Assembly: GCA_021789795.1 (NCBI GenBank)
Contig: JAJYJA010000001.1
Location: 1-37,466 of the forward strand
Length of the DNA stretch: 37,466 nt
Origin: Deltaproteobacteria bacterium
GTDB lineage: Bacteria > Desulfobacterota > Desulfobulbia > Desulfobulbales > VMSU01
Direction: 5' to 3'
The position numbers were made by a program, and so were the translations under genes. Under the pieces are notes generated by a model. The model saw only the letters and a list, made by a program, of their open reading frames with translations. It did no database searches and had not been told where the DNA came from. Shown piece by piece: positions 2,119 through 23,110 of the stretch; position 1 is the stretch's first letter; every line of letters starts with the position of its first letter.

Positions 2119-3972
2119 ATGCCGGAAGAAAAGGACGACTGGCTAGACGACCTGGAAGACGCCATCGCCGCCTCGCCCGAGAGCGGCCCGGCCCAGTCCG
2201 ACCTCAGTTCCCTGTTGATCGAGGATGAGGCCCAGACGCCCGCCCCCTCGCCGGGAGAGGAAGCTCAGACGGAAACGGATGAGCTTGATCAATCGGCGAT
2301 CGACGCCCTGCTCTCCGGGGGCGACGGGGCGGCGGCCGAGGCCGGGGAGCTTTCGCAGTCGGATCTCGACACCCTCCTGGTCAGCCCCCAGACGCCCGCC
2401 CCGGCCAAGGAGACCGCCGACCCAGATCAGGACGAGATCGACAAGCTGTTCTCCGAGGCCGACAGCCTCGACGCCGCCACCGAGGTACCCTTCCCGGAGT
2501 CGGAGACCGACTTCAAGGACCTCTTCGACGGTCAGGAACCGGCAGCCCCGTCCCCCACCCCGGCCCCGCCTCTCGACTTCGACAGCGACGAATTCAAGCT
2601 CGACACGGAGATCCCCGACATCCCGGACAGCATCGGCCTCGCCTCCCCGCCTGCGGAGCCGCCCCCCCCGGCGGACGAGGCCACCGCCGTCGCCGAACCG
2701 CCACCCGAGGCCGCCGCCCCCTCCCCAGCCGGAGAGGAGGCTCCGCCCGCCCTCGCCCCGTCCGCCGTCGCTGGACTCGGGGCCGGGCTCGCCCTGCTGC
2801 TCGCCAAGCGCCGGCTGCTCCTGGGGGCCGGGCTGCTGGCCCTGCTGCTCTTAATCGGCGGCGGGCTCTTTTTCGCCCGCCACCGGCGGACAGCCCCGGT
2901 TCCGCCCGCCGTGCAGGAGGAGACGGCGCCCGTCCCGGCGGCCCCGGAACCCGCCCGGCCGCCGGGGCCGCCCCCCCCGGCAGCGGCCCCGGCGCCAGGC
3001 GTCACCGCCATCCCGCCCCCGGCGGCCCCCGCCCCCCCGGTGGTCGCCGATCTCGATCTCACCCTGCCGGCGGACAGTCAAGAGCTGGTAATCACCCTGC
3101 ACGCCTCCGACCCGGACAACCGGGAGCTAAGCTACGACTTCGTGTCCATGCCCCAGCACGGCCAACTCTCCGGGCAGGCCCCCAACCTGATCTACACCCC
3201 CCAGCCCGGTTTCAGCGGCCAGGACAGCTTTTCGGTCAAGGCCGGAAACGGCGCCAGCGAGAGCGCCCCAGCCACCGTCCGCATCACTAGGCTGGCCCCG
3301 ACCAAGGCGGCCCCGCCGGAGACGAAGGCCGAGGCCAAGGAGGAGACGATAAGGGCCCAGGACGCCAGCTACACCGTCACCGGCGGCCAGGGCCGGAGGA
3401 TCGACTGGCGGCGGCTCTGGCGGGCGGCCAACCGGTCGTCAGAGACTTACCAGGCCCGGGTGGACATCCTGACCCCGCCCCGGCACGGCGACGTGCGGCT
3501 CAAGGGCGAGGCGGCGATCTATCGGCCCGCCTCAGGCTTTGCGGGCGCCGACACCCTCCGCTACCGCTTCCGTTTAGGCTCCCGGATGTCGGCGCCCGCC
3601 ACCCTGACCATGCGGGTGATCCAGCCCCGCCCCCCTAAGCCCCCGTTGATCCACCTGCAAGCCCTGGCCCCGGAGTACCAGACCGGCGACACCGTAAGCC
3701 TAAATGCCAGCCAAACCCTAGCCGGCAGCCGCCCCCCCGGCCTGATCTTCACCTGGGAGCAGCAGTCCGGGCCGCCGGTGCGGCTGCGGGCCCTAGACGA
3801 GTCCGAGTCGCGGGTGGACTTCGTGGCCCCGGCCTTCTTCAGCAACGAGGATGACCCGCGTCTGACCTTCCTCCTGACCGTGACCGCCCCCAACGGGCAG
3901 AGCGCCTCCCGGGAGGTCGTGGTCAGGGTCAAGTCCCGCCGTCACTCCGCCCTCTGGGGCCAAGGCCACTGA
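2119..3972 (+). CDS. Bitopic membrane protein: acidic N-terminal region with four FliM-N-like EIDALL motifs, Pro-rich linkers, one TM helix, and two cadherin/Ig-like domains plus one PKD-like domain
   Basis: Motifs AQSDLSSLL, DQSAIDALLSGG, LSQSDLDTLL and DQDEIDKLF (nt 2191-2451). TM LLLGAGLLALLLLIGGGLFFA (within nt 2770-2877). Ig-like signatures LIYTPQPGFSGQDSFSVKAGNG..ATVRI and AIYRPASGFAGADTLRYRF. PKD-like LNASQT....FTWEQQSGPPV...FVAP...LTFLLTVTAPNG. Confidence 0.7.
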   Translation: MPEEKDDWLDDLEDAIAASPESGPAQSDLSSLLIEDEAQTPAPSPGEEAQTETDELDQSAIDALLSGGDGAAAEAGELSQSDLDTLLVSPQTPAPAKETADPDQDEIDKLFSEADSLDAATEVPFPESETDFKDLFDGQEPAAPSPTPAPPLDFDSDEFKLDTEIPDIPDSIGLASPPAEPPPPADEATAVAEPPPEAAAPSPAGEEAPPALAPSAVAGLGAGLALLLAKRRLLLGAGLLALLLLIGGGLFFARHRRTAPVPPAVQEETAPVPAAPEPARPPGPPPPAAAPAPGVTAIPPPAAPAPPVVADLDLTLPADSQELVITLHASDPDNRELSYDFVSMPQHGQLSGQAPNLIYTPQPGFSGQDSFSVKAGNGASESAPATVRITRLAPTKAAPPETKAEAKEETIRAQDASYTVTGGQGRRIDWRRLWRAANRSSETYQARVDILTPPRHGDVRLKGEAAIYRPASGFAGADTLRYRFRLGSRMSAPATLTMRVIQPRPPKPPLIHLQALAPEYQTGDTVSLNASQTLAGSRPPGLIFTWEQQSGPPVRLRALDESESRVDFVAPAFFSNEDDPRLTFLLTVTAPNGQSASREVVVRVKSRRHSALWGQGH

Positions 3973-4894: not shown

Positions 4895-4924
4895 TTGACA
4901 GCCGCGTTTTTTTCTGCGTATCCT
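4895..4924 (+). promoter_or_regulatory. Candidate sigma70-type promoter for the 5020 gene and the MCP
   Basis: TTGACA (4895-4900), an 18-nt T-rich spacer, then TATCCT (4919-4924), about 95 nt upstream of the ATG at 5020. Confidence 0.35.
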
Positions 4925-5019
4925 TATAGGTATTCGCCCCAGGCCGTCCTAACCTGGGATCTGCCACGCCATCCCTGGACGTCGCCGGCTGGACAAACCA
5001 CTTTTACAGGAGAATATTT

Positions 5020-5346
5020 ATGAAAATCAAGGCGTTACTGTTGGCAGTACTGGCAATTTTCCTGTTCGCCTCCACCCAGGCCTCGGCCGAGACCCAGTGG
5101 CAGAAGACCCACCCGCGCCGGGTGCAGGTCAACCAGCGGCTAAAGAAGCAGAACCGACGCCTCCACCAGGAGGTGAAGGAAGGCGACCTGAGCAAGAAAA
5201 AGGCCGCCCGTCTGCACCGCAAGGATAAAGGTATCCGTCGGGAGGAGCGCGCCATGGCGCACAATAACGGCGGCCACCTCACCAAGCAGGAACAGGGGAT
5301 CATCAACCGCCAGGAAAACCGGGTCAGCCACCAGATCGGTCAGTAA
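5020..5346 (+). CDS. Small secreted, highly basic (Lys/Arg/Gln-rich) protein of unknown function
   Basis: AGGAG RBS. Signal peptide MKIKALLLAVLAIFLFASTQASA|E. Coding-type GC3 bias. The MCP start lies 36 nt downstream. Confidence 0.7.
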   Translation: MKIKALLLAVLAIFLFASTQASAETQWQKTHPRRVQVNQRLKKQNRRLHQEVKEGDLSKKKAARLHRKDKGIRREERAMAHNNGGHLTKQEQGIINRQENRVSHQIGQ

Positions 5347-5382: not shown

Positions 5383-7614
5383 ATGAAGAAGATGAAGCTA
5401 AGCGCCAAAATCACCGGCGGTTTCGGGATCGTCATCCTGCTGATGATCGGGGTGATCGGGGTCTATCAGTTCTCCTCCCTGCGCACCACCAGCGGCTTTG
5501 AAGACCTGCTGGGCGACGACATCTTAATCGAAAACCACGCCCTGCAGGCGGATGTCGAGCTGGAGGCGGCCTTAAACGCCCAGACCGAGTTTTTGGCCAG
5601 CAAGGGGCAGCAGGCGGTGGCGGCGCACCAAAAGGCGGTGGCCGGGTTTACCAAGCATATCCAGGCCCTCAAGGCGGTGGAGGACAAGAACAACCCCAAG
5701 CAGGCCAAGGTGGCCGCCGAGCTCCTGGCCGGGATGGGCGAGTACGACGCCCTGTTCGGCAAGATGACGCAGGCGGTGGCCGCCATCGGGGCCAACGATA
5801 ACGAGGGCGACCAGGGCCGCTTCCGCAAGGCGATCCACGACCTGGAGGACGACCTGAAGGAGCACGACCAGGGTGATCTGGCCACCGCCCTGGCCAGGAT
5901 GCGCCACGCCGAGAAGGACTTCATCCTCTCCGGCGGCGAGGCCAAGGGGGCGGCCTTCAAGACCGCGCTCGCCAACTACACCGCCACCCTGAACGCCTCC
6001 ACCTGCGAGGCGGAGGCCAAGGCGGCCCAGCAGAAGGCGCTCGCCGACTACCAGGCGGCGGCGGACAAGCTTATGGCCGGCGGGGCCGGGGATCGCGAGG
6101 CGGCGACCAAGGCCCTGGCCGCCTCGGGCGAGGCCATGGACACCGCCCTCAACTCGGTAAACGTCCCCGACATCCGCACCCGGCTGCTCTCCATCCGCCG
6201 GCACGAGAAGAACTTCATGCTCCGAGGCGAGGACACCTACCTCAAGCAGACCCACGCCGCCATCGCCAAATTCAAGGAGACGGTGGAGAAGTCGGGCATC
6301 ATGCAGAAGCACATGGGCCCGCTGCTCGCCGAGCTAGCCGCCTACCAGCAGGGCTTTGACGACATGAGCGCCAAGATGACCGCCCTGGCCCAGGACCAGG
6401 CGGCGGCGGCCAAGCTGGTCAAGGGGCGTATCGACCCGGCGATTAAGGAGATCGTCAACGAGAGCCGCACCACCGGCGACGCCACCTCGGCCAGCATCGT
6501 CGCGTTGGCCCAGCGTTTGTCCGGCATCGCCATCGCGGCCAGCCTGATCATCATCGTCTTCGCCATCGGCCTGGCCCTGGCCCTGGCCCGTTCCATCTGC
6601 GGGCCCATCGACCGGGCGGTCAAGGGGATCATCGCCGGCGCCGAGCAGGTCTCCGCCGCCTCGAACCAGGTCTCGGCCTCCAGCATCACCCTGGCCGAGG
6701 GCGCCACCGAGCAGGCGGCCTCGCTGGAGGAGACCAGCGCCTCGATGGAGGAGATGTCCTCCATGACCCGCCAGAACTCGGAGAACGCCGCCCAGGCCGA
6801 CGGCCTGATGCGCGAGTCCCTGGCCGTGATCCAGCAGGCCGACAGCGCCATGCAGGAGATGGGCCGCTCGATGACCGAGATCGCCCAGGCCAGCGCCGAG
6901 ACCTCGAAGATCATCAAGACCATCGACGAAATCGCCTTCCAGACCAACCTCCTGGCCCTAAACGCGGCGGTCGAGGCGGCCCGGGCCGGGGAGGCGGGGG
7001 CCGGGTTTGCGGTGGTGGCCGAGGAGGTGCGGAATCTGGCCATGCGCTCCACCGAGGCGGCCAAGAACACCGCGAGCCTCATCGAGGGCACGGTGGCCAA
7101 GGTGACCAGCGGCAAGACCATCGTCGAGCAGGCCACCTCCGCCTTCCACGGGGTGGCGGAGAGCAGCTCCAAGGTGGCGGGCCTGATCGGCGAGATCGCC
7201 ACCGCCTCCAAGGAGCAGGCCCAGGGATTTGCCCAGATCAGCCAGGCCATCACCCAGATGGACGCGGTGACCCAGCAGAACTCGGCCACCGCCGAGGAGT
7301 CGGCGGCGGCCGCCGCCGAGCTGAACACCCAGGCCAGCGCCATGATGGGCACGGTGCGCGAGATCCAGGTGCTGGTCAACGGCGGCGAGGAGCTAAAGAG
7401 GCCGCCCGCCCCGCCCACGCTGGCGGCGGGCCGCAAGGCCAGGCCCGAGGTCGCCGAACACCGGCGGGCGGGCCAGGCCAAGACCGCCCTGCCCCCGCCC
7501 GCCGCCAAGCGTCCGGCGGGCCCGGCCCCCAAGCCGGCCAAGAAGCCGGGGGCCGGGCCCTCGCCCGAGGAGATCATCCCCATGGACGACGAGCACAACT
7601 TCGAGGACTTCTGA
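5383..7614 (+). CDS. Methyl-accepting chemotaxis protein: large helical periplasmic sensor, no recognisable HAMP, long Pro-rich C-terminal tether ending NFEDF
   Basis: Two TM segments (about aa 10-30 and 380-402). [16 protein letters not shown] and the hairpin tip [38 protein letters not shown] are canonical MCP signalling motifs. Confidence 0.95.
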
Positions 7615-10031: not shown

Positions 10032-10616
10032 ATGCGTAAAGTTATCCTCTTCCTGCTACTCGGCTTTCTGGCCGTCAACCTCGCCGGCTGCGGCTACAAC
10101 ACCATCCAGGCCAACGACGAGGCGGTGACCGCCGCCTGGGGCGACGTGGAGGCCGCCTACCAGCGCCGGGCCGACCTGATCCCCAACCTGGTGGAGACGG
10201 TGAAGGGCTACGCCGCCCACGAGAAGGACACCCTGATCGCGGTCACCGAGGCCCGGGCCAAGGTGGGCCAGATCAAGGTGGGGGCCGAGGTGATGAAAGA
10301 CCCCCAGGCCTTCGCCAAGTTCGAGGCCGCCCAGGGGGGCTTGAGCTCCGCCCTCTCCCGGCTGATGGTGGTGGTGGAAAAATATCCCGACCTGAAGGCC
10401 AACCAGTCGTTCCAGGACTTCCAGCACCAACTGGAGGGCACCGAGAACCGGATCAACGTCGCCCGGGTGCGCTACAACCAGGCGGTGCAGGCCTTTAACA
10501 CCTCGATCCGCACCTTTCCCAACAACCTGACCAACAACTTCCTGCTCCACCTCTCCCGCCGGGAGCCGTTCAAGGCCGAGGCGGGCGCCGCCAAGGCCCC
10601 GAGCGTCAAGTTCTGA
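10032..10616 (+). CDS. lemA: LemA family protein
   Basis: AGGAG RBS and an N-terminal anchor/lipobox (LAGCGYNT). WGDVEAAYQRRADLIPNLVETVKGYAAHE and FNTSIRTFPNN are LemA signatures. Confidence 0.9.
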   Translation: MRKVILFLLLGFLAVNLAGCGYNTIQANDEAVTAAWGDVEAAYQRRADLIPNLVETVKGYAAHEKDTLIAVTEARAKVGQIKVGAEVMKDPQAFAKFEAAQGGLSSALSRLMVVVEKYPDLKANQSFQDFQHQLEGTENRINVARVRYNQAVQAFNTSIRTFPNNLTNNFLLHLSRREPFKAEAGAAKAPSVKF

Positions 10617-10664
10617 TGGCGTCGCCAACAGACCGATCTACGGCGTTTTGCGAGATCATCAATT

Positions 10665-11576
10665 TTGACCGGGATACCGCAGGTGCGTCTTAACCTCTCA
10701 CCAGCTCGCCTGCGGCTGGCCGTCCTTTGGCTGGCCTTGGCCGGGATCCTGGCCCTGACCGCCCCCGCCTGGGGGCTTGAGCCGCCCGCCTTCCACGGCT
10801 ACGTCAACGACTACGCCCACCTGCTCCGGCCGGAGACGGTACAGCTCCTGGATCAGGCCTTAAGCGACTTCGACCGCTCCGACTCCACCCAGGTGGCGGT
10901 GCTGACCATTGACTCCCTGGCGGGCGACAACCTGGAGGACTTCAGCATCCGCACCGCCGAGCGCTGGAAGATCGGCCAGAAGGGCAAGGACAACGGCGTC
11001 CTGCTGCTGGTGGTAAAAAATGACCACAAGCTGCGGATCGAGGTGGGCCGGGGCCTGGAGGGGGTGCTGACCGACCTGCTGGCGGGCCGGATCGTCGATA
11101 ACGTCATCCGCCCCCTGTTTAAAGAGGGCCGCTACGACGAGGGGGTCAAGGCCGGGGTGGGGGCGATCATCCAGGCCTGCCGGGGCGAGTTCAAGGCCGA
11201 CCCCCGCGCCCTGGCCCGGCGCGCTCAGGGCCAGGGGCCGCCGCCGGCCTTGGCCTATTTCCTCTTTGGCTTCCTGGCCATCGCCTTCTTGGGCCGGATG
11301 TCCAAACCCCTGGGGATAGTGGCCGGGGCGGTGCTGCTGCCGCTCGCCGTCTTTCTCGGGCTGGGCTCGCTCGGCTGGCTGGCGCTCCTCATCCTCTTGC
11401 CCGCCGGGGCCTTGGGTGGCTTTCTGCTGCCCCTCATCCTCGCCAACCTGCTCTTTGGCGGCGGGGGCGGGTTTGGCGGCTTCGGGGGCGGCGGCTTCGG
11501 CGGGGGTGGGGACAGCGGCTTCGGCGGCTTTGGCGGCGGTGATTTCGGAGGCGGCGGCGCCTCGGGGGGTTGGTGA
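10665..11576 (+). CDS. TPM-domain protein (YgcG-like) with C-terminal TM segments and a Gly/Phe-rich tail
   Basis: YVNDYAHLL...QVAVLTIDSL....LLLVVKNDHKLRIEVGRGLEG is TPM/methanol-dehydrogenase-beta-like. The tail is GGGGFGGFGGGGFGGGGDSGFGGFGGGDFGGGGASGGW. The start is uncertain (TTG 10665 or GTG 10683). Confidence 0.85.
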   Translation: MTGIPQVRLNLSPARLRLAVLWLALAGILALTAPAWGLEPPAFHGYVNDYAHLLRPETVQLLDQALSDFDRSDSTQVAVLTIDSLAGDNLEDFSIRTAERWKIGQKGKDNGVLLLVVKNDHKLRIEVGRGLEGVLTDLLAGRIVDNVIRPLFKEGRYDEGVKAGVGAIIQACRGEFKADPRALARRAQGQGPPPALAYFLFGFLAIAFLGRMSKPLGIVAGAVLLPLAVFLGLGSLGWLALLILLPAGALGGFLLPLILANLLFGGGGGFGGFGGGGFGGGGDSGFGGFGGGDFGGGGASGGW

Positions 11577-12223
11577 TGACAGACGCGGAACATTTCTTTT
11601 CCGAGCCGGAAAAGTTGCAAATCGCCCAGACCATCTCCGAGGTGGAGAAGAGCACCTCGGGCGAGATCCGCCTGCTGGTGGAGGATCGCAGCGACGCCTA
11701 CCCCGAGGCGACCCTGCTGGGCGGCTTGCTGATTGGCGGGATCGTGGCCCTGGCGATCACCGACCGCTTTTTCCACGACTCCCTGTGGGCCTATATCCCC
11801 TGCGCCTTTGTCTGTTTCCTGCTCGCCGGGGCGCTGCTGAAACTACTCCCCGGCCTGCGCCGGCTCTTCGTGTTCGCCCATCGGGCGGAGCGCCGGGTGC
11901 GCGAACACGGGGCGCTGCTCTTCTACGCCCACGGACTGCACAAGACCCGCGAAGGCACCGGGGTGCTATTCCTGCTCTCCCTGTTCGAGAAGCGGGTCTG
12001 GGTCCTGGCCGACGCCGGCATCTACCAGAAGTTGCGCCAGGAGGAGTTGCAGACCTACACCAGCAAGATCGTGGCCGGGATCAGCAAGGGCAACAAGACC
12101 GAGGCCATCTGCGCCGAGATCCGCCGCCTGGGCGAGACCCTGGCCCGGCACTTCCCGCCCCGTCCCGACGACACCGACGAGCTGGCCAACGAGGTCATCG
12201 TCGAGGGCAAGCAACCGGATTGA
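11570..12223 (+). CDS. TPM-domain protein (second member of the LemA-TPM-TPM triad)
   Basis: FFSEPEKLQIAQTISEVEKSTSGEIRLLVE, two TM segments, then GVLFLLSLFEKRVWVLADAGI. Overlaps the upstream gene by 7 nt (GTGATGA). Confidence 0.8.
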   Translation: MVMTDAEHFFSEPEKLQIAQTISEVEKSTSGEIRLLVEDRSDAYPEATLLGGLLIGGIVALAITDRFFHDSLWAYIPCAFVCFLLAGALLKLLPGLRRLFVFAHRAERRVREHGALLFYAHGLHKTREGTGVLFLLSLFEKRVWVLADAGIYQKLRQEELQTYTSKIVAGISKGNKTEAICAEIRRLGETLARHFPPRPDDTDELANEVIVEGKQPD

Positions 12224-15053: not shown

Positions 15054-17699
15054 CTATTCGCCGGCCCCCACCGTCACCTGAACGTAACTCTCCGGCCGGA
15101 TGTACCTGGCCGCCGCCTGTCGCACCTCCTCCGCCGTCACCTGGCCGATGGCCGCCAGGTAGCGGTTGCCGAAGTCCTGGCCCAGGCCGTAGGTCTCGCT
15201 CAAGGCCAGATCCAGGGCCTGGGCGCTGTTGGTTTGCAGGCCCAGATCGTAGTGCCCGGCCAGCAGCCCCTTGGCCTTCTCCAGTTCCTCCACGCTTAGG
15301 GGCTCGGCCCGCACCCGCTCAAGTTCCCGCCACAGGGAGGCGATGGCCTCCGCCCGCTTGTCCGGGCTGGTGCCGATATAGACCCCGAAGGAGCCGGTGT
15401 CCAGGCCCAGCAGGGTGAAGGACGACAGGCTGTAGGCCAGTCCCTGCCGGTCGCGCAACTGACGGAAGAGCCGGCCGCTCTGGCCGCTCAAGGCGGTGTC
15501 TAAAAGCTCCAGGGCATAACGATCCGGGCCGGTGAGGGTGGGGCCGATAAAGCCGATGACGATGTGCACCTGCTCCTTGTCCTGGGGCCGATGCACCAGC
15601 CGCGGCGGATGCGGGGCGGCGGGCGGGTTGATCCTCGGGGGCGCCAGACCATCCGCCGCCGGCCGCCATTGGCCAAACAGGCGACTGGCCCGTTCGTGGG
15701 CCTCGCTGGCCTTGATGTCGCCGGCCACCGCCAGCACCAGCCGCTCGGGCCGGGCATGCCGGAGATAGATGTCCCGCAACTCCGGGGCGGAGAAGGCGGC
15801 GATCGCCTCCGCCGCGCCCAAGCCATTCAAGGCGTAGGGATGCTCTTGAAACAGGGCCCGGTTGAACTCGACAAAGGCGGTGGCGGTCAGGGAATCCCGC
15901 TGCTGCCTTAAGGCCGCCAGCCGCTCGGGCCGGATCTTGTCCGCCTCCTGGGGGTCGAAGGCGGGGGTGGTCAGCACCTCGGCCATCAACTCCAGACCCT
16001 CGCCGAAGAAACGGGACAGAAAGGCCGCCTTGAGGCCGAAGGTATTTTTCCCCGCGAACCCGGAGAGGTCTCCGGCCATGTCGGCGATCTTGAGCGACAG
16101 CTCCCGGGCGTTCACCCTGGCGCTGCCCTTGGGCAGCAGGTCGGCGATAAAGGCAAAGGCGCCGTTGCTCTCCAGGCCTTCGGCCATCAGCCCGCCGGGG
16201 AAGACCGCCTGGATGGCCACCGTCGGCACCTGGGGCTCCTCCCGCACCAGCAGGGTGATCCCGTTATCCAGGGTGAAGCGGTGGACGTTGCCGAGGTAGG
16301 AGTCAATCAGCGAGGCCTCAGCTTCGGACTGCCCCCTGCCCTCCGTCCGGGCGATGCTGGCCAGCAGTTCTTCCTGGCCGAGGTCTAGGTCGGCCTCCCT
16401 GGGGAGAAGACAGCCCACGGTGAGGCGGCGGGGGTCGCAGTACCGGCGGGCCACCCGCTCCAGATCGGCCACGCCTACCGCCCGAATCCGTTCGAGATAG
16501 GCGTCCTCCCGCGGGTCGCCGGTCAACAGCTCAAACGAGCCCAGCACCCGGGCCTGGCCCTCGACCTTCTCCAGATTGAAGACAAAATCGCTCTCCAGGT
16601 TGCGTTTCACCCGCTCCAGCTCCCGCTCCTCCACCGGGATTAAGCGCAAGCGGGCCAATTCCGCCAGGCAGGAGTCGATGGCGGCCTTGATCTGCCCGTG
16701 CTCCAAGGTGGCGACAATCTGCAACAGGCCGGGATATTTGGGGGTAAAGGCCCAGGCGCGGATGCCGTACACCAGGCCCTGTTCGTCGCGCAGTCGCTGG
16801 TATAGCCGCGAGGCGTCGCCCTGTCCCATGACCCCGGCCAGGACATCAAGGGCCGGGGTGTCGGGGTGGTCGAAGGCCGGGATGGGGAAGATCAGGGCCA
16901 GCTGCGACTGGTTGACCGCCTCCCGCAAGGCGAAGATCCGAGGCTCCTGGGGCCAGGGTTCCTCGGGGAGCACGGCGGCCTCGCCCCCCTGGGCGGGCAG
17001 GTGGGAGAAGATCTGCGCCACCTGGGCCAGGGCCTCCGGATGGGGAAGGTCGCCCACCAGCACCACGGTGAAGTTTGCGGGCCGGTAATGCCGGGCCAGG
17101 TAGCGCAGGATGTCCTCCCGGCGGAAGGCGGCCACGGACTCGCGGCTACCGATCACCGGCAGCCGGTAGGGATGGCGGGCGTAGGCGTGACTCATGGTGG
17201 CGTCGAAGAACTTCACCTCCGGCCGGTCGGCGCGCATCCCGATCTCCTCCAGCACCACCAGCTTCTCCCGTTCGAGTTCCTGTTCGTCGAAGACCGAGTT
17301 GAGCACCGCGTCGGCCAGCACCGTAAGCGCCGTCTGCCACTCCCTGACCGGCAGGGTGGCATGATAGACGGTGTGCTCGAAGGAGGTGTAGGCGTTGATC
17401 TGCCCGCCCCGCTCCTCGATGGCGGCGGCCACCTCGCCCGGCCCCCTGATCTTGGTGCCCTTGAAGATCATGTGCTCGATCAGGTGGGTGATGCCGCCCT
17501 CGTCCGGACCCTCGTAGATGCTGCCCGCCCGCACCCAAATTTGGACGGTGGCCACCTTGACCCCCGGCGTCTCCTTGACCAGCACGGTCAGACCGTTGGC
17601 CAGGGTGTCTTTGTAGAGGCGGGGCTTGAGCTGCCGGACGCCGGGGCTGATGGTGGTCATGTTTTCCACGGTGGTCTGGTCGTTGGCCGATCGACTCAT
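15054..17699 (-). CDS. Tandem M16 (pitrilysin-family) zinc peptidase, two M16 units fused
   Basis: HxxEH motif in GGITHLIEHMIFKGT and a second, inactive-type M16 half. I place the start at ATG 17699 (MSRSANDQ), which forms an ATGA overlap with the lgt stop. The upstream 148 codons of the 1029-aa ORF overlap lgt out of frame and are Arg/Pro-rich. Confidence 0.85.
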   Translation of the reverse strand: MSRSANDQTTVENMTTISPGVRQLKPRLYKDTLANGLTVLVKETPGVKVATVQIWVRAGSIYEGPDEGGITHLIEHMIFKGTKIRGPGEVAAAIEERGGQINAYTSFEHTVYHATLPVREWQTALTVLADAVLNSVFDEQELEREKLVVLEEIGMRADRPEVKFFDATMSHAYARHPYRLPVIGSRESVAAFRREDILRYLARHYRPANFTVVLVGDLPHPEALAQVAQIFSHLPAQGGEAAVLPEEPWPQEPRIFALREAVNQSQLALIFPIPAFDHPDTPALDVLAGVMGQGDASRLYQRLRDEQGLVYGIRAWAFTPKYPGLLQIVATLEHGQIKAAIDSCLAELARLRLIPVEERELERVKRNLESDFVFNLEKVEGQARVLGSFELLTGDPREDAYLERIRAVGVADLERVARRYCDPRRLTVGCLLPREADLDLGQEELLASIARTEGRGQSEAEASLIDSYLGNVHRFTLDNGITLLVREEPQVPTVAIQAVFPGGLMAEGLESNGAFAFIADLLPKGSARVNARELSLKIADMAGDLSGFAGKNTFGLKAAFLSRFFGEGLELMAEVLTTPAFDPQEADKIRPERLAALRQQRDSLTATAFVEFNRALFQEHPYALNGLGAAEAIAAFSAPELRDIYLRHARPERLVLAVAGDIKASEAHERASRLFGQWRPAADGLAPPRINPPAAPHPPRLVHRPQDKEQVHIVIGFIGPTLTGPDRYALELLDTALSGQSGRLFRQLRDRQGLAYSLSSFTLLGLDTGSFGVYIGTSPDKRAEAIASLWRELERVRAEPLSVEELEKAKGLLAGHYDLGLQTNSAQALDLALSETYGLGQDFGNRYLAAIGQVTAEEVRQAAARYIRPESYVQVTVGAGE

Positions 17700-18472
17700 T
17701 GCTGACGCCGACGGATGAGGAGGGCGAGCGCCAGGCCGGCGGCGATCATGCCCAGACTTAGGATCTGACCCATGGTGAAGACCCCGATGAAGCCGATCTG
17801 GGGGTCGGGCTCGCGGAACAGCTCGGCCAGGATGCGGAAGACGCCGTAGGCGATCAAGAACAGGGCCAGCATGGCGCCCGGCCGGTGGGGCCGGTCCTTG
17901 GCCCGCCACAGGATCAGGAAGAGGAGCACCCCCTCCAGCAGGCACTCGTAAAGCTGGGAGGGATGCCGGGGGTGGGGGCCGCCGGTGGGGAAGATCATCG
18001 CCCAGGGCACGTCGGTCTCCCGGCCAAACAGCTCGCCGTTGATGAAGTTGCCCAACCGGCCCAGTCCCAGGCCGATGGGGATGGTCACCACGTAGATGTC
18101 CGCCGTCTTCCAGAAGTCGAGGCCCCGGGAGGCACAGAACCATACCCCGCCCAGGATGACCCCGATCAAGGCCCCGTGAAACGACATCCCCCCCTGCCAG
18201 GTGGCCGGGATTTCGGCGGGATGATCGAGGTAGTAGGGCAGGTTGTAGAACAGGACGTAGCCCAACCGCCCCCCCAGAATCAGGCTGAGCAACAGGGTGA
18301 AGTTCAGGTTCTCGAAGTGGCTGGCCAGATGGGTGTCGCCGCTGCGCTCAATCTGACGGCGCACCAGACCGTAGGAGGCCACAAAGCCCAGGACGTACAT
18401 CAGCCCGTACCAACGGATCCGCAGGGGGCCGAGCCGGACCAGCACCGGGTTGATGTGGGGATAGGGCAGCAT
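17696..18472 (-). CDS. lgt: Prolipoprotein diacylglyceryl transferase
   Basis: MLPYPHINPVLVRLGPLRIRWYGLMYVLGF, MSFHGALIG and LGRLGNFINGELFGR are Lgt signatures. Start chosen at ATG 18472 (the ORF extends to 18496). Confidence 0.92.
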   Translation of the reverse strand: MLPYPHINPVLVRLGPLRIRWYGLMYVLGFVASYGLVRRQIERSGDTHLASHFENLNFTLLLSLILGGRLGYVLFYNLPYYLDHPAEIPATWQGGMSFHGALIGVILGGVWFCASRGLDFWKTADIYVVTIPIGLGLGRLGNFINGELFGRETDVPWAMIFPTGGPHPRHPSQLYECLLEGVLLFLILWRAKDRPHRPGAMLALFLIAYGVFRILAELFREPDPQIGFIGVFTMGQILSLGMIAAGLALALLIRRRQQ

Positions 18473-18536
18473 ATTCACCTCGTCTTTGCAAACCATGCTG
18501 GCTGGTTAAGGCCGCCGCCCCACCAACCTAAAATTC

Positions 18537-21484: not shown

Positions 21485-22051
21485 TTAGGGGCGCGGGAAT
21501 CTGGGGTTACCCCGGATGAAGGCCCGGGCCACCGAGCCGGGCAGCAGGTGATTGGCCGCCTGGCCGCCCAGGAGGAGGAAGTCGTCGTCGGGCAGGGTGT
21601 TTTTCACCGCCTGGGCCTTGACCAGTTCGTCTTTCAGGTAGGAGACCTGGAGGTTAAGGTCGTCGATCTCTCGCTGGTGGGCCAGGCATTGGTCGGCCAG
21701 GGACTTGTTCTCCCCGGCCAGGCGGCTTAGTTCGCCGTTTTTTTCCTCGATCAGCCGCTGGTGCTCGTGGCGCTCGATCATCTCGGGCCGGTCCTCGGGC
21801 GGCGGGGCGGCGGCGCTCTCCACCCTGGCGGCCAGACGCACCTGGCAGCCCTGCAACTCCTGCCTCAGCAGCTCGCACTCCTCTTCCCACTTGCGATTTA
21901 ACTCCTCGCTCGCCTGCTCACCCTTAGCACGCTGGGATTCCCCCAGGGCCAACAGCCGCCGACGTTCGCGCAGGAAACGTTCTTGCAGAAAGATGAGGGT
22001 GGTTCCCGTCCCCAGGCAGAGACCAAGGAGGACGAAGAGGATGGATTTCAT
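21485..22051 (-). CDS. Membrane-anchored coiled-coil protein, downstream partner of the MamK-like actin
   Basis: N-terminal TM MKSILFVLLGLCLGTGTTLIFL, then heptad-like charged helices (ELNRKWEEECELLRQELQ; EIDDLNLQVSYLKDELVKAQ). The start lies 12 nt after the upstream stop. Confidence 0.7.
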   Translation of the reverse strand: MKSILFVLLGLCLGTGTTLIFLQERFLRERRRLLALGESQRAKGEQASEELNRKWEEECELLRQELQGCQVRLAARVESAAAPPPEDRPEMIERHEHQRLIEEKNGELSRLAGENKSLADQCLAHQREIDDLNLQVSYLKDELVKAQAVKNTLPDDDFLLLGGQAANHLLPGSVARAFIRGNPRFPRP

Positions 22052-22063
22052 GGCGGGCCGGGG

Positions 22064-23110
22064 TTAGGCCTCGGGGCCGGAGAATCCTATTTTGTCCCAG
22101 TGCTCCGGCGGCAGGTCGAGGCCAAGCTTCAAGGCCCCGGCGCAGCCGGTGAAGTCCGGGTCATCGACGCAACTTACCTTCACCGGGCCGAAATCGCCCA
22201 ACTGCCGCTCCACCATGGCCGCGATGCCCTTGAGCCGCGAACCGCCCCCGGCCAGATAGATGTTCCTTAACACCTCCGGCTGGCTCTCCGGGTCGTACCC
22301 CTTCATGATGGCCACGATGTTCTCGACGATGTCCGGGACGATGCTCTCGCACACCGCCCGGATCTCGCGGGTCAAGTCGTACTCGGCGGGCTTGCCGTCC
22401 CGGCGCAGGGTCACCAGCACCGGGGCCTCGGGCTCGCCGACGAAGGCATATTGCTCCTTGATGGTGCGCACCAGGTTGCGGGTGATCTGCACGTCGTAGA
22501 ACTTCTGCTGAATGGCCGATTCCAGCCGTTCGTCGATGTAATCCCCCGCCTTCAGGGTGGTGATCTGATCCTTCTGGCCCGGCACCGAACCCTTGACCCC
22601 GCAGATATCCACCGTCCCGGCCCCGATATCGACGATGATGGCGTCGCTCAACTTGTTGATGGCGTAAGCGACCATAAAGGGCTCGGAGACGATCAGGGCG
22701 GTGGTCATCAACTCCCTGGCGAGCTGCAACAGCAGTTCCTTGTTGACGATCGAGGCCCGGGAGGGCACCCCGATGATCCCGGCCACCGGCACCTCGGCCC
22801 CCTGTTTCGCCTCGTTGACCACGTGCCGCAAAAGCTCCAGGGCGGCGGTGTAGTCCTTTTCGCTGCCCTCCCGGATCACCCCGTCTTCCAGGGGGTGGTA
22901 GAGGGTGAGGGCGGAGCGGTGCCTGAGGGCCTCGTCGCCGAACACCTGAGTCTTGCCTAATAATTTTATGCCTATTATATCCTTGGGATAGCCGACGATG
23001 GAGCGGGTGATCCCCTGGTATCCTCGACTGGACATCACCGCCGTGCGCGAGGTGCCGAGATCGACGCCGATGATGAGGGGTTCGTCTGTTGGGTATTGGT
23101 CGTCTGACAT
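22064..23110 (-). CDS. MamK-family bacterial actin (actin-like ATPase)
   Basis: IGVDLGTSRTAVMSSRG, VGYPKDIIGIKLLG, VSEPFMVAYA, IIVDIGAGTVDICG, TLKAGDYIDERL, KEQYAFVG, LAGGGSRLKGIAA, VSCVDDPDFTGCAGALKLG and LPPEHW match, block for block, the MamK sequence as I recall it. Confidence 0.85.
   Translation of the reverse strand: MSDDQYPTDEPLIIGVDLGTSRTAVMSSRGYQGITRSIVGYPKDIIGIKLLGKTQVFGDEALRHRSALTLYHPLEDGVIREGSEKDYTAALELLRHVVNEAKQGAEVPVAGIIGVPSRASIVNKELLLQLARELMTTALIVSEPFMVAYAINKLSDAIIVDIGAGTVDICGVKGSVPGQKDQITTLKAGDYIDERLESAIQQKFYDVQITRNLVRTIKEQYAFVGEPEAPVLVTLRRDGKPAEYDLTREIRAVCESIVPDIVENIVAIMKGYDPESQPEVLRNIYLAGGGSRLKGIAAMVERQLGDFGPVKVSCVDDPDFTGCAGALKLGLDLPPEHWDKIGFSGPEA

Follow-up and report, generated by a model that had tools for sequence, protein, structure and literature searches.

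In the C-ring proteins FliM and FliY, a short sequence known as the EIDAL motif is present as a single copy at the extreme N-terminus. In FliM this motif is a high-affinity docking site for phosphorylated CheY (CheY-P), and the EIDAL motif of FliM and FliY is also reported to be required, and to suffice, for an interaction with FlhG, a MinD-type ATPase that acts in flagellar number and placement. Related ideas are found in CheZ, where a short C-terminal peptide tethers CheY-P, and in CheY phosphate sinks, where extra CheY-P capacity shapes the kinetics. Here we describe a gene that encodes several copies of a similar motif in a very different setting. It lies at positions 2119–3972 (forward strand, as for all features of its operon) of a stretch of 37,466 nucleotides, referred to below as the window, from a Deltaproteobacteria bacterium of the Desulfobulbales (assembly GCA_021789795.1, contig JAJYJA010000001.1, positions 1–37,466). 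In the list of open reading frames (ORFs) of the window it corresponds to a membrane protein of 617 residues, and it is the last gene of a four-gene operon that also encodes two secreted proteins with FlgO domains.

Two other described systems are relevant. In Vibrio, FlgO is part of the H-ring, together with FlgP and FlgT; V. cholerae FlgO forms an outer-membrane-anchored ring of C58 symmetry. HubP and FimV are bitopic polar landmark proteins with a long, acidic, repeat-bearing cytoplasmic region, and HubP acts on FlhG at the cell poles of Vibrio and Shewanella. The separate elements, namely the docking peptide of the EIDAL type, the ring domain of FlgO and the sigma-28 regulon, are all known. 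Their combination is undescribed in the literature searched: searches on CheY-binding motifs and on FlgO in Desulfo- taxa returned no account of such a system, in agreement with an earlier note on this DNA, made from the sequence alone, whose author was not aware of one.

A conserved motif array in the N-terminal tail

The N-terminal 230 residues of the protein are abundant in Ala, Pro, Asp and Glu, and carry a net charge of −50. They contain four motifs of the form Qxx[IL]DxL[LF], at residues 25, 57, 79 and 103, which span nucleotides 2191–2451, exactly where the earlier note had seen them. The first, AQSDLSSLL (2191–2217), is degenerate. It is followed by LDQSAIDALLSG (2284–2319, core 2287–2313) and LSQSDLDTLL (2350–2379, core 2353–2379). 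The last, DPDQDEIDKLFS (2419–2454, core 2425–2451), is a variant, and represents a distinct conserved class, DPDQDEIDKLFSE, of which there are 34 instances. The AlphaFold2 model, calculated from an alignment of 37 sequences, shows disorder over the N-terminal region, broken by short helices at residues 8–17, 59–65, 80–87 and 104–116, the last three being located on motif copies 2, 3 and 4.

Such an array is not expected by chance. When the N-terminal 230 residues were shuffled 200,000 times with composition preserved, the pattern Q..[IL][DS].L[LF] was absent from 99.7% of the shuffled sequences and occurred at most twice, compared to the four matches observed (p < 5e-6). The motif is also found in all of the 37 full-length orthologs in the protein database, with 2–6 copies in each, always N-terminal to the transmembrane (TM) helix. 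The 102 distinct instances give the consensus ELDQSDIDALLSG (E-L-D-Q-S-D-I-D-A-L-L-S-G), in which the Q is present in every instance and the I, D, L and L are 83–96% conserved. Mean column conservation in the ortholog alignment is 0.80 in the motifs as against 0.41 in the spacers. The motifs are thus fixed, while their copy number changes and the spacers around them vary freely, which is the behaviour expected of docking peptides within a disordered tail. Acidic low complexity, which the earlier note had seen as the other possible explanation, does not account for this, and on the strength of its conservation the motif is a true multimerised short linear motif.

A HMMER search with the N-terminal 150 residues against all representatives gave only 17 matches, implying that the tail is specific to this family, with the exception of two proteins (P0049 and P0053) discussed below. 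A profile of three tandem motifs, run against a set of 5.8 billion proteins, recovered just six very small proteins; the family itself was not among them, probably owing to bias correction. These six matches led to the other array proteins.

The EIDAL-type copies are not the most conserved part of the tail. The sequence KDDWLDDL at residues 5–12 (2131–2154), which overlaps the predicted helix 8–17, has a column conservation of 0.91, with D6, D7, W8 and L9 unchanged across 37 sequences. Two more conserved acidic motifs, ETDFKDLF and DEFKLDTEIPDIPD, were identified at 2503–2628 from the conservation profile and alignment. In a more general form the motifs of 2503–2628 read ETDFKDLF and DEFKLDxxIPDIPD. 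A further short conserved motif of the same protein, SRRxSA[LI]W, lies at the C-terminus (3931–3957).

Comparison with the FliM docking peptide

A hidden Markov model (HMM) of the motif, built from 66 instances, was scored without filters against E. coli FliM (MG1655 record). The best site in FliM is at residues 3–18, DSILSQAEIDALLNGD, with 9.7 bits; published work places CheY-P docking in this N-terminal EIDAL region. As a control, 3,209 ORF translations from the fetched loci were scored in the same way; the best reached 4.8 bits, and none reached 6 bits. Copy 2 of the window protein (DQSAIDALLSG) is identical to the E. coli peptide (SQAEIDALLNG) at 7 of 11 positions, so that the likeness drawn in the earlier note holds, with 11 positions in place of 10, and the register L-x-Q-x-x-I-D-A-L-L-x-G is common to the motif and FliM over 12 positions. 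These comparisons support the assignment of the motif, as a putative member, to the FliM-N (EIDAL) docking type.

The window protein and FliM/FliY share the register L-[SD]-Q-x-[ED]-I-D-A-L-L-x-G, and in both the motif is a short helix set in disordered sequence, with a cytoplasmic location (by prediction, see below) and a likely place in the flagellar regulon. No FliM, CheC, FliMN_C or SPOA domain was found in the window protein using Pfam and NCBIfam, and its motifs are internal, are present in 2–6 copies across the family, and are carried on a bitopic envelope protein, whereas the C-ring proteins FliM and FliY have just one, at their very N-terminus. Because it has no CheC-like or SPOA domain, and because its motif is internal and multiple, the window protein is not a member of the FliM/FliY family. 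Membership of two other groups was considered using the same databases and rejected: for HubP/FimV, because neither a LysM domain nor the C-terminal motif of FimV is present, and for TonB, because the defining domains are absent.

Topology and domains of the membrane protein

The window protein has one strong hydrophobic segment, at residues 233–253 (2815–2877), for which AlphaFold2 predicts a helix spanning residues 223–254. The same is true of all 37 orthologs, each of which has a single strong hydrophobic window, with a mean hydropathy of 1.8–2.8 over 19 residues; the mean for the second-best window is 1.1. Lys and Arg residues flanking the helix average 3.7 on the N-terminal side and 2.5 on the C-terminal side. 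The tail has a mean net charge of −50 across the orthologs and no signal peptide, while the partner proteins encoded upstream all have one. The single TM helix, the bias in Lys and Arg, the acidic tail, the lack of a signal peptide and the secreted partners together provide a strong inference for an N-in/C-out topology, with the tail predicted to be cytoplasmic, as had been proposed.

On the periplasmic side, the helix is followed by a Pro/Ala-rich spacer (2881–3030), which in the AlphaFold2 model has a low pLDDT (predicted local distance difference test) score and no secondary structure. Beyond it are three tandem β-sandwich domains (3031–3939), at residues 305–392, 410–502 and 520–607, modelled for the most part with pLDDT >90. 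Pfam identifies Big_9 and Cadherin_5 at residues 306–390, and a K319L-like PKD domain, below threshold, at 525–604. In Foldseek searches the three domains resemble tandem cadherin, protocadherin and Ig arrays, with E values down to 1e-13. They are accordingly described here as Big_9/cadherin-like, Ig-like and PKD-like. Hydropathy, Pfam, AlphaFold2 and Foldseek are therefore in agreement with the single TM helix and three extracytoplasmic domains suggested earlier. In three orthologs (P0030, P0032 and P0052) there is an additional C-terminal extension, CPxGxCPGxLLPWPYxD.

The operon and its promoter

The first two genes of the operon encode FlgO-domain secreted proteins, here called FlgO1 (164–883; 239 residues; Pfam PF17680, E 4.7e-35) and FlgO2 (880–1593; 237 residues; PF17680, E 1.5e-23). 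The third encodes a small secreted protein of 168 residues with a signal-peptide-like N-terminus (1607–2113), which is specific to this family, and the fourth encodes the bitopic membrane protein (cytoplasmic motif array, TM helix, Pro-rich linker and three Ig-like domains). The genes either overlap, the stop codon of FlgO1 sharing bases with the start codon of FlgO2 (ATGA), or are separated by 5–13 nucleotides. In 67–68 of 74 genomes the four genes stand in one and the same order (FlgO1, FlgO2, small secreted protein, TM-Ig gene), and in the remainder the locus is interrupted by the end of a contig; the small secreted protein is found at 68 of the 74 loci. Practically all genomes with the membrane protein thus encode it in an operon with secreted FlgO-like proteins, as the earlier note had it for the window. 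At L001:4692-6832 and at 19–24 further loci, genes for a Trypsin_2 (DegP-like) and an HSP33-like protein follow directly after the TM-Ig gene on the same strand, and possibly extend the operon in this subset of genomes.

Among PDB entries, FlgO1 is similar to the FlgO chains of V. cholerae in 9yds and 9yfg, with E values of 3.6e-13 to 3.7e-13. FlgO2 is a possible lipoprotein, with a lipobox-like Cys (LAVAC in the window protein) in a subset of orthologs only. Using a strict regular expression, such a Cys was found in a minority of the FlgO-like orthologs, the others having sites of the signal-peptidase-I type. The likeness to the Vibrio H-ring is therefore that two secreted, co-transcribed proteins carry the FlgO domain. 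The differences are that the operon does not lie in a flagellar cluster, has no FlgP or FlgT nearby, lacks a consistent lipobox, and includes an inner-membrane Ig-domain protein with a cytoplasmic tail, which has no place in the account of the Vibrio H-ring.

The small secreted protein had been counted as a third FlgO-like protein. It has a conserved C-terminal sequence, VVNVEMSEPIYRALHTY, and no match in Pfam or the PDB in profile searches, and its similarity to FlgO is weak (hhalign probability 46%, pairwise E 2e-4). The single-sequence AlphaFold2 model has a pLDDT of 55, at which the Foldseek matches are meaningless. Two of the three secreted proteins are thus identified as FlgO-like, with the third at most a weak candidate.

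Upstream of the operon is a sigma-28 (FliA)-type promoter (45–72), consisting of a −35 box TAAAG (45–49) and a −10 box GCCGATAG (65–72). The whole element reads TGTAAAG...GCCGATAG, and is 92 nucleotides ahead of the start codon. The looser pattern TAAA-N15-17-CCGAT has two matches in the window, with 0.14 expected. Among the 61 loci with enough upstream sequence, T[ACT]AAG-N16-CCGAT is found ahead of FlgO1 in 60, made up of 50 with exactly TAAAG and ten with TCAAG or TTAAG at equal spacing; the one locus without the element has a short upstream sequence. The extended form, T[ACT]AAG-N15-[GA]CCGAT[AG], is also present in 60 of the 61. A scan of every locus on both strands (2.35 Mb) gives 70 occurrences of the exact pattern, 50 of them ahead of FlgO1, compared to a background of 0.02 per 700 nucleotides. 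The sequence of the spacer varies from locus to locus, while the two boxes and the distance between them are constant.

The sigma-28 promoter of P. aeruginosa fliC reads TCTAAAG / GCCGATAA (PMC12784957), and the boxes found here agree with that consensus (TAAAG-N14-GCCGATAA). In the window, the sequence ahead of the operon gave no sigma-70-like promoter, and a search for a sigma-54 promoter was likewise negative. We infer from the conserved boxes that FliA drives the operon promoter.

Distribution and genomic neighbourhood

Relatives of the membrane protein were found in 74 species-level genomes. All those with a taxon named below phylum belong to the Desulfobulbia or Desulfobacterales (Desulfurivibrio, Desulfurivibrionaceae, metagenome-assembled genomes of Desulfobulbaceae, and Desulfobia). 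Three are isolates, namely Hydrosulfovibrio ferrireducens, Desulfurivibrio sp. D14AmB and strain M19. Desulfurivibrio dismutans has one or two 'thick' subpolar flagella (PMC12142623), and cultured Desulfurivibrio are motile vibrios with the same one or two thick subpolar flagella; an older report on the AHT2 genome describes a non-motile organism, yet tallies 82 cell-motility genes. In Vibrio, an H-ring with FlgO goes with sheathed flagella, and a sheath or an unusual basal structure is conceivable in the Desulfurivibrio clade.

Neighbouring genes were counted in the 10-kb flanks of each locus. The genes that recur there have housekeeping functions, namely rpe at 57 loci, an M16 peptidase gene at 54 and lgt at 42. 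Matches to receiver domains are present at only six loci, at varying distances, and flhG was not seen in these flanks. The earlier note had placed a gene for a methyl-accepting chemotaxis protein (MCP) about 1.4 kb from the operon. Such a gene does start at position 5383, 1.4 kb downstream, with a convergent rpe between it and the operon, and it has sigma-70-like promoter candidates of its own. The arrangement is not conserved, an MCP neighbour being present in 2 of 75 loci, that is, in the window and in one other locus (L007) that is 83% identical. Linkage of the operon to an MCP is thus rejected by synteny. Immediately upstream of the MCP gene is an ORF for a small secreted Lys/Arg/Gln-rich protein of 108 residues (5020–5346, forward strand) with no Pfam match, preceded by sigma-70-like promoter candidates at 4895–5018.

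Other proteins with motif arrays

Similar arrays were found in two further families, both unrelated to the window protein. The first (P0042 and P0055) consists of bitopic proteins in which SQADIDALLQG occurs four or more times ahead of a TM helix. The gene is located directly after flhF-flhG-fliA, and before a gene for a DUF2802 (FipA-like) protein, within a full flagellar cluster (L006 and L085). A search for homologs of P0042 found one relative, at locus L085. In these two loci (L085:9738-10700 and L006:5955-6161), which are flagellar clusters of the Desulfobacteraceae type, the copies read [YM][VI]SQADIDALLQG, and the L085 assembly is frameshifted.

The second family (P0049 and P0053) has a gene that comes after a Maf/MptE-like gene. 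P0049 (L081:10001-13003) is a soluble protein of 1000 residues in which TLGQDEIDALLGGGK / VSQDDIDALLAG is repeated in tandem about 25 times, and it has no Pfam domain. P0053 (L084:8870-10618) is encoded adjacent to fliOPQR-flhBA-flhF, and a gene for a single-domain response regulator comes after it. The occurrence of three separate families suggests a broader class of EIDAL-array proteins.

Possible function

The sigma-28-type promoter, the FlgO domains, and the presence of array proteins within flagellar clusters make it most likely that the four-gene module is part of the flagellar regulon. It is therefore probably a previously undescribed accessory of flagellar motility or chemotaxis. The earlier note had described it as possibly non-flagellar, a label that finds no support in view of the promoter at 60 of 61 loci, the role of FlgO as part of the H-ring, the array proteins in flagellar clusters, and the flagella of Desulfurivibrio.

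On the basis of these observations, we hypothesise that the operon is an envelope module of the FliA regulon, serving flagellar motility and chemotaxis in the sulfur-cycling Desulfobulbia, and that its cytoplasmic tail captures CheY-P; we favour this reading, while giving it a little less than an even chance. The two FlgO-domain proteins, and perhaps the small secreted protein, would form or join an assembly in the periplasm or associated with the outer membrane. The bitopic protein would reach this assembly from the inner membrane, using its Pro-rich spacer and three Ig-like domains, and its disordered acidic tail, of some 220 residues, would expose 2–6 EIDAL docking helices along with the other acidic motifs. 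These helices may then capture CheY-P multivalently at the membrane, producing a local concentrator or sink for CheY-P, probably close to the motor. The hypothesis supposes that the periplasmic parts interact and that the complex sits near the motor. The choice of CheY-P as the predicted ligand, which is made tentatively, is based on the motif being closest to the FliM docking peptide, and on late-class expression, which suits motor operation.

A more elaborate and more doubtful version, suggested by analogy with the C58 ring of Vibrio, is that a large FlgO-like ring surrounds the polar or subpolar motor, and that inner-membrane subunits hang 3–6 CheY-P-binding peptides around the C-ring. This could act as a 'CheY-P antenna or buffer' that tunes switching, and EIDAL arrays might then be a general and so far unrecognised means of wiring chemotaxis or FlhG signalling to the envelope.

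Several points weigh against capture of CheY-P within a FliA-driven module. Compared with the consensus of E. coli and P. aeruginosa, the spacer of the operon promoter has one extra nucleotide, and the FliA regulon of E. coli, although made up mostly of flagellar and chemotaxis genes, has a few others. No che or fla genes were found within 10 kb of the operon in the 74 genomes, nor were the partners FlgP and FlgT seen near it. In the motif itself, DIDAL is commoner in this family than EIDAL, and the first position is mostly D, where FliM has S. The motif HMM does not match the C-terminal CheY-P peptide of E. coli CheZ (ASQDQVDDLLDSLGF), and the window protein, which would share with CheZ and with phosphate sinks the principle of tethering or storing CheY-P, has no phosphatase domain. 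When the filtered motif profile was run against the PDB, the top match was a docking domain or helix of a polyketide synthase (PKS), with FliM unlisted, the filters being such as to drop short matches. With FliM-N matched, CheZ unmatched and a PKS helix as the top PDB match, the likeness is specific to FliM-N, yet not unique. Finally, the EIDAL class of motif is reported to bind FlhG as well as CheY-P.

This last point leads to a serious, if rather unlikely, rival, in which the array docks FlhG in place of CheY-P and acts as a membrane landmark or sponge in the manner of HubP. FlhG reads the EIDAL of FliM and FliY, one of the array membrane proteins is encoded next to flhF-flhG-fliA and the FipA-like gene, and the window protein resembles HubP and FimV in being bitopic, its long cytoplasmic region being acidic, rich in repeats and of a kind that recruits motility-related proteins. 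In HubP and FimV, however, the orientation is the opposite one, the tail of the window protein being N-terminal, and the repeat sequence is different; the absence of LysM and FimV features and of a nearby flhG also counts against this rival, as does one Vibrio study in which direct binding of FliM to FlhG was undetected. A sigma-28 late-class promoter would also fit motor operation better than early assembly or number control.

Equally unlikely, in our view, is that the module is a scaffold of the flagellar regulon whose tail binds some other partner (from the C-ring, the export apparatus, the stator, or a cyclic di-GMP effector), the likeness to EIDAL being convergent and due to an acidic amphipathic helix of a generic sort. 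The invariant DDWL, which is more conserved than the EIDAL-type copies, and the two acidic motifs are unexplained, which in part is why such a partner is considered; and the PKS and CheZ results described above are compatible with it. Against it are the score that the profile gives to precisely the docking peptide of FliM, higher than that of any of the 3,209 controls, and the register shared over 12 positions.

The proposal of the earlier note, a non-flagellar chemotaxis output in which a CheY-P scaffold connects the MCP pathway to a periplasmic or surface structure, now appears improbable. The operon is indeed outside flagellar clusters, and Ig- and PKD-like domains are typical of surface and periplasmic structures. 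Against this are the rarity of the MCP neighbour, the conserved sigma-28-type promoter and the homology to FlgO, which indicates flagella. Cable bacteria have che genes and are not known to have flagella. No relative was found among genomes labelled as cable bacteria, a weak argument as it goes by labels only. It is very improbable that the protein has no part in signalling and is a plain envelope or adhesion protein whose acidic tail is of low complexity. Ig-like repeats and linkers rich in Pro are often found in envelope proteins, but the position-specific conservation of the motifs amid variable copy number and spacers, and the result of the shuffles, largely refute this reading.

Whichever ligand is correct, the locus represents a multivalent docking-type array on a protein predicted to span the inner membrane, co-transcribed with FlgO-like proteins and conserved in 74 or more species-level genomes. 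With CheY-P as the ligand of the tail, this would constitute a new form of signal shaping, through capture, buffering or a sink that is local and anchored in the envelope; with FlhG as the ligand, it would provide the control of flagellar number with a new landmark outside the gamma-proteobacteria. In either case it offers a testable handle on the diversity of motors and chemotaxis in a clade (Desulfurivibrio, Hydrosulfovibrio) that can be cultured but has been little studied.

Further features of the window

The region further from the operon contains a few other genes worth recording. A divergent actin/MreB-like protein is encoded at 22064–23110 (reverse strand), with a match to MreB_Mbl of 79 bits only and weak matches to Actin, Salactin and Alp7A. 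It is adjoined by an ORF of 188 residues (21485–22051, reverse strand) with no Pfam match. At 10032–12223 (forward strand), a LemA gene is followed by two genes for TPM-domain proteins, a trio of membrane-related genes that is common and poorly understood. The ORF assigned mechanically to the M16 peptidase (15054–18143, reverse strand; 1029 residues) overlaps lgt (17696–18496, reverse strand) by about 450 nucleotides. The orthologs of this peptidase are about 870–890 residues long, and its true start is therefore probably further downstream.

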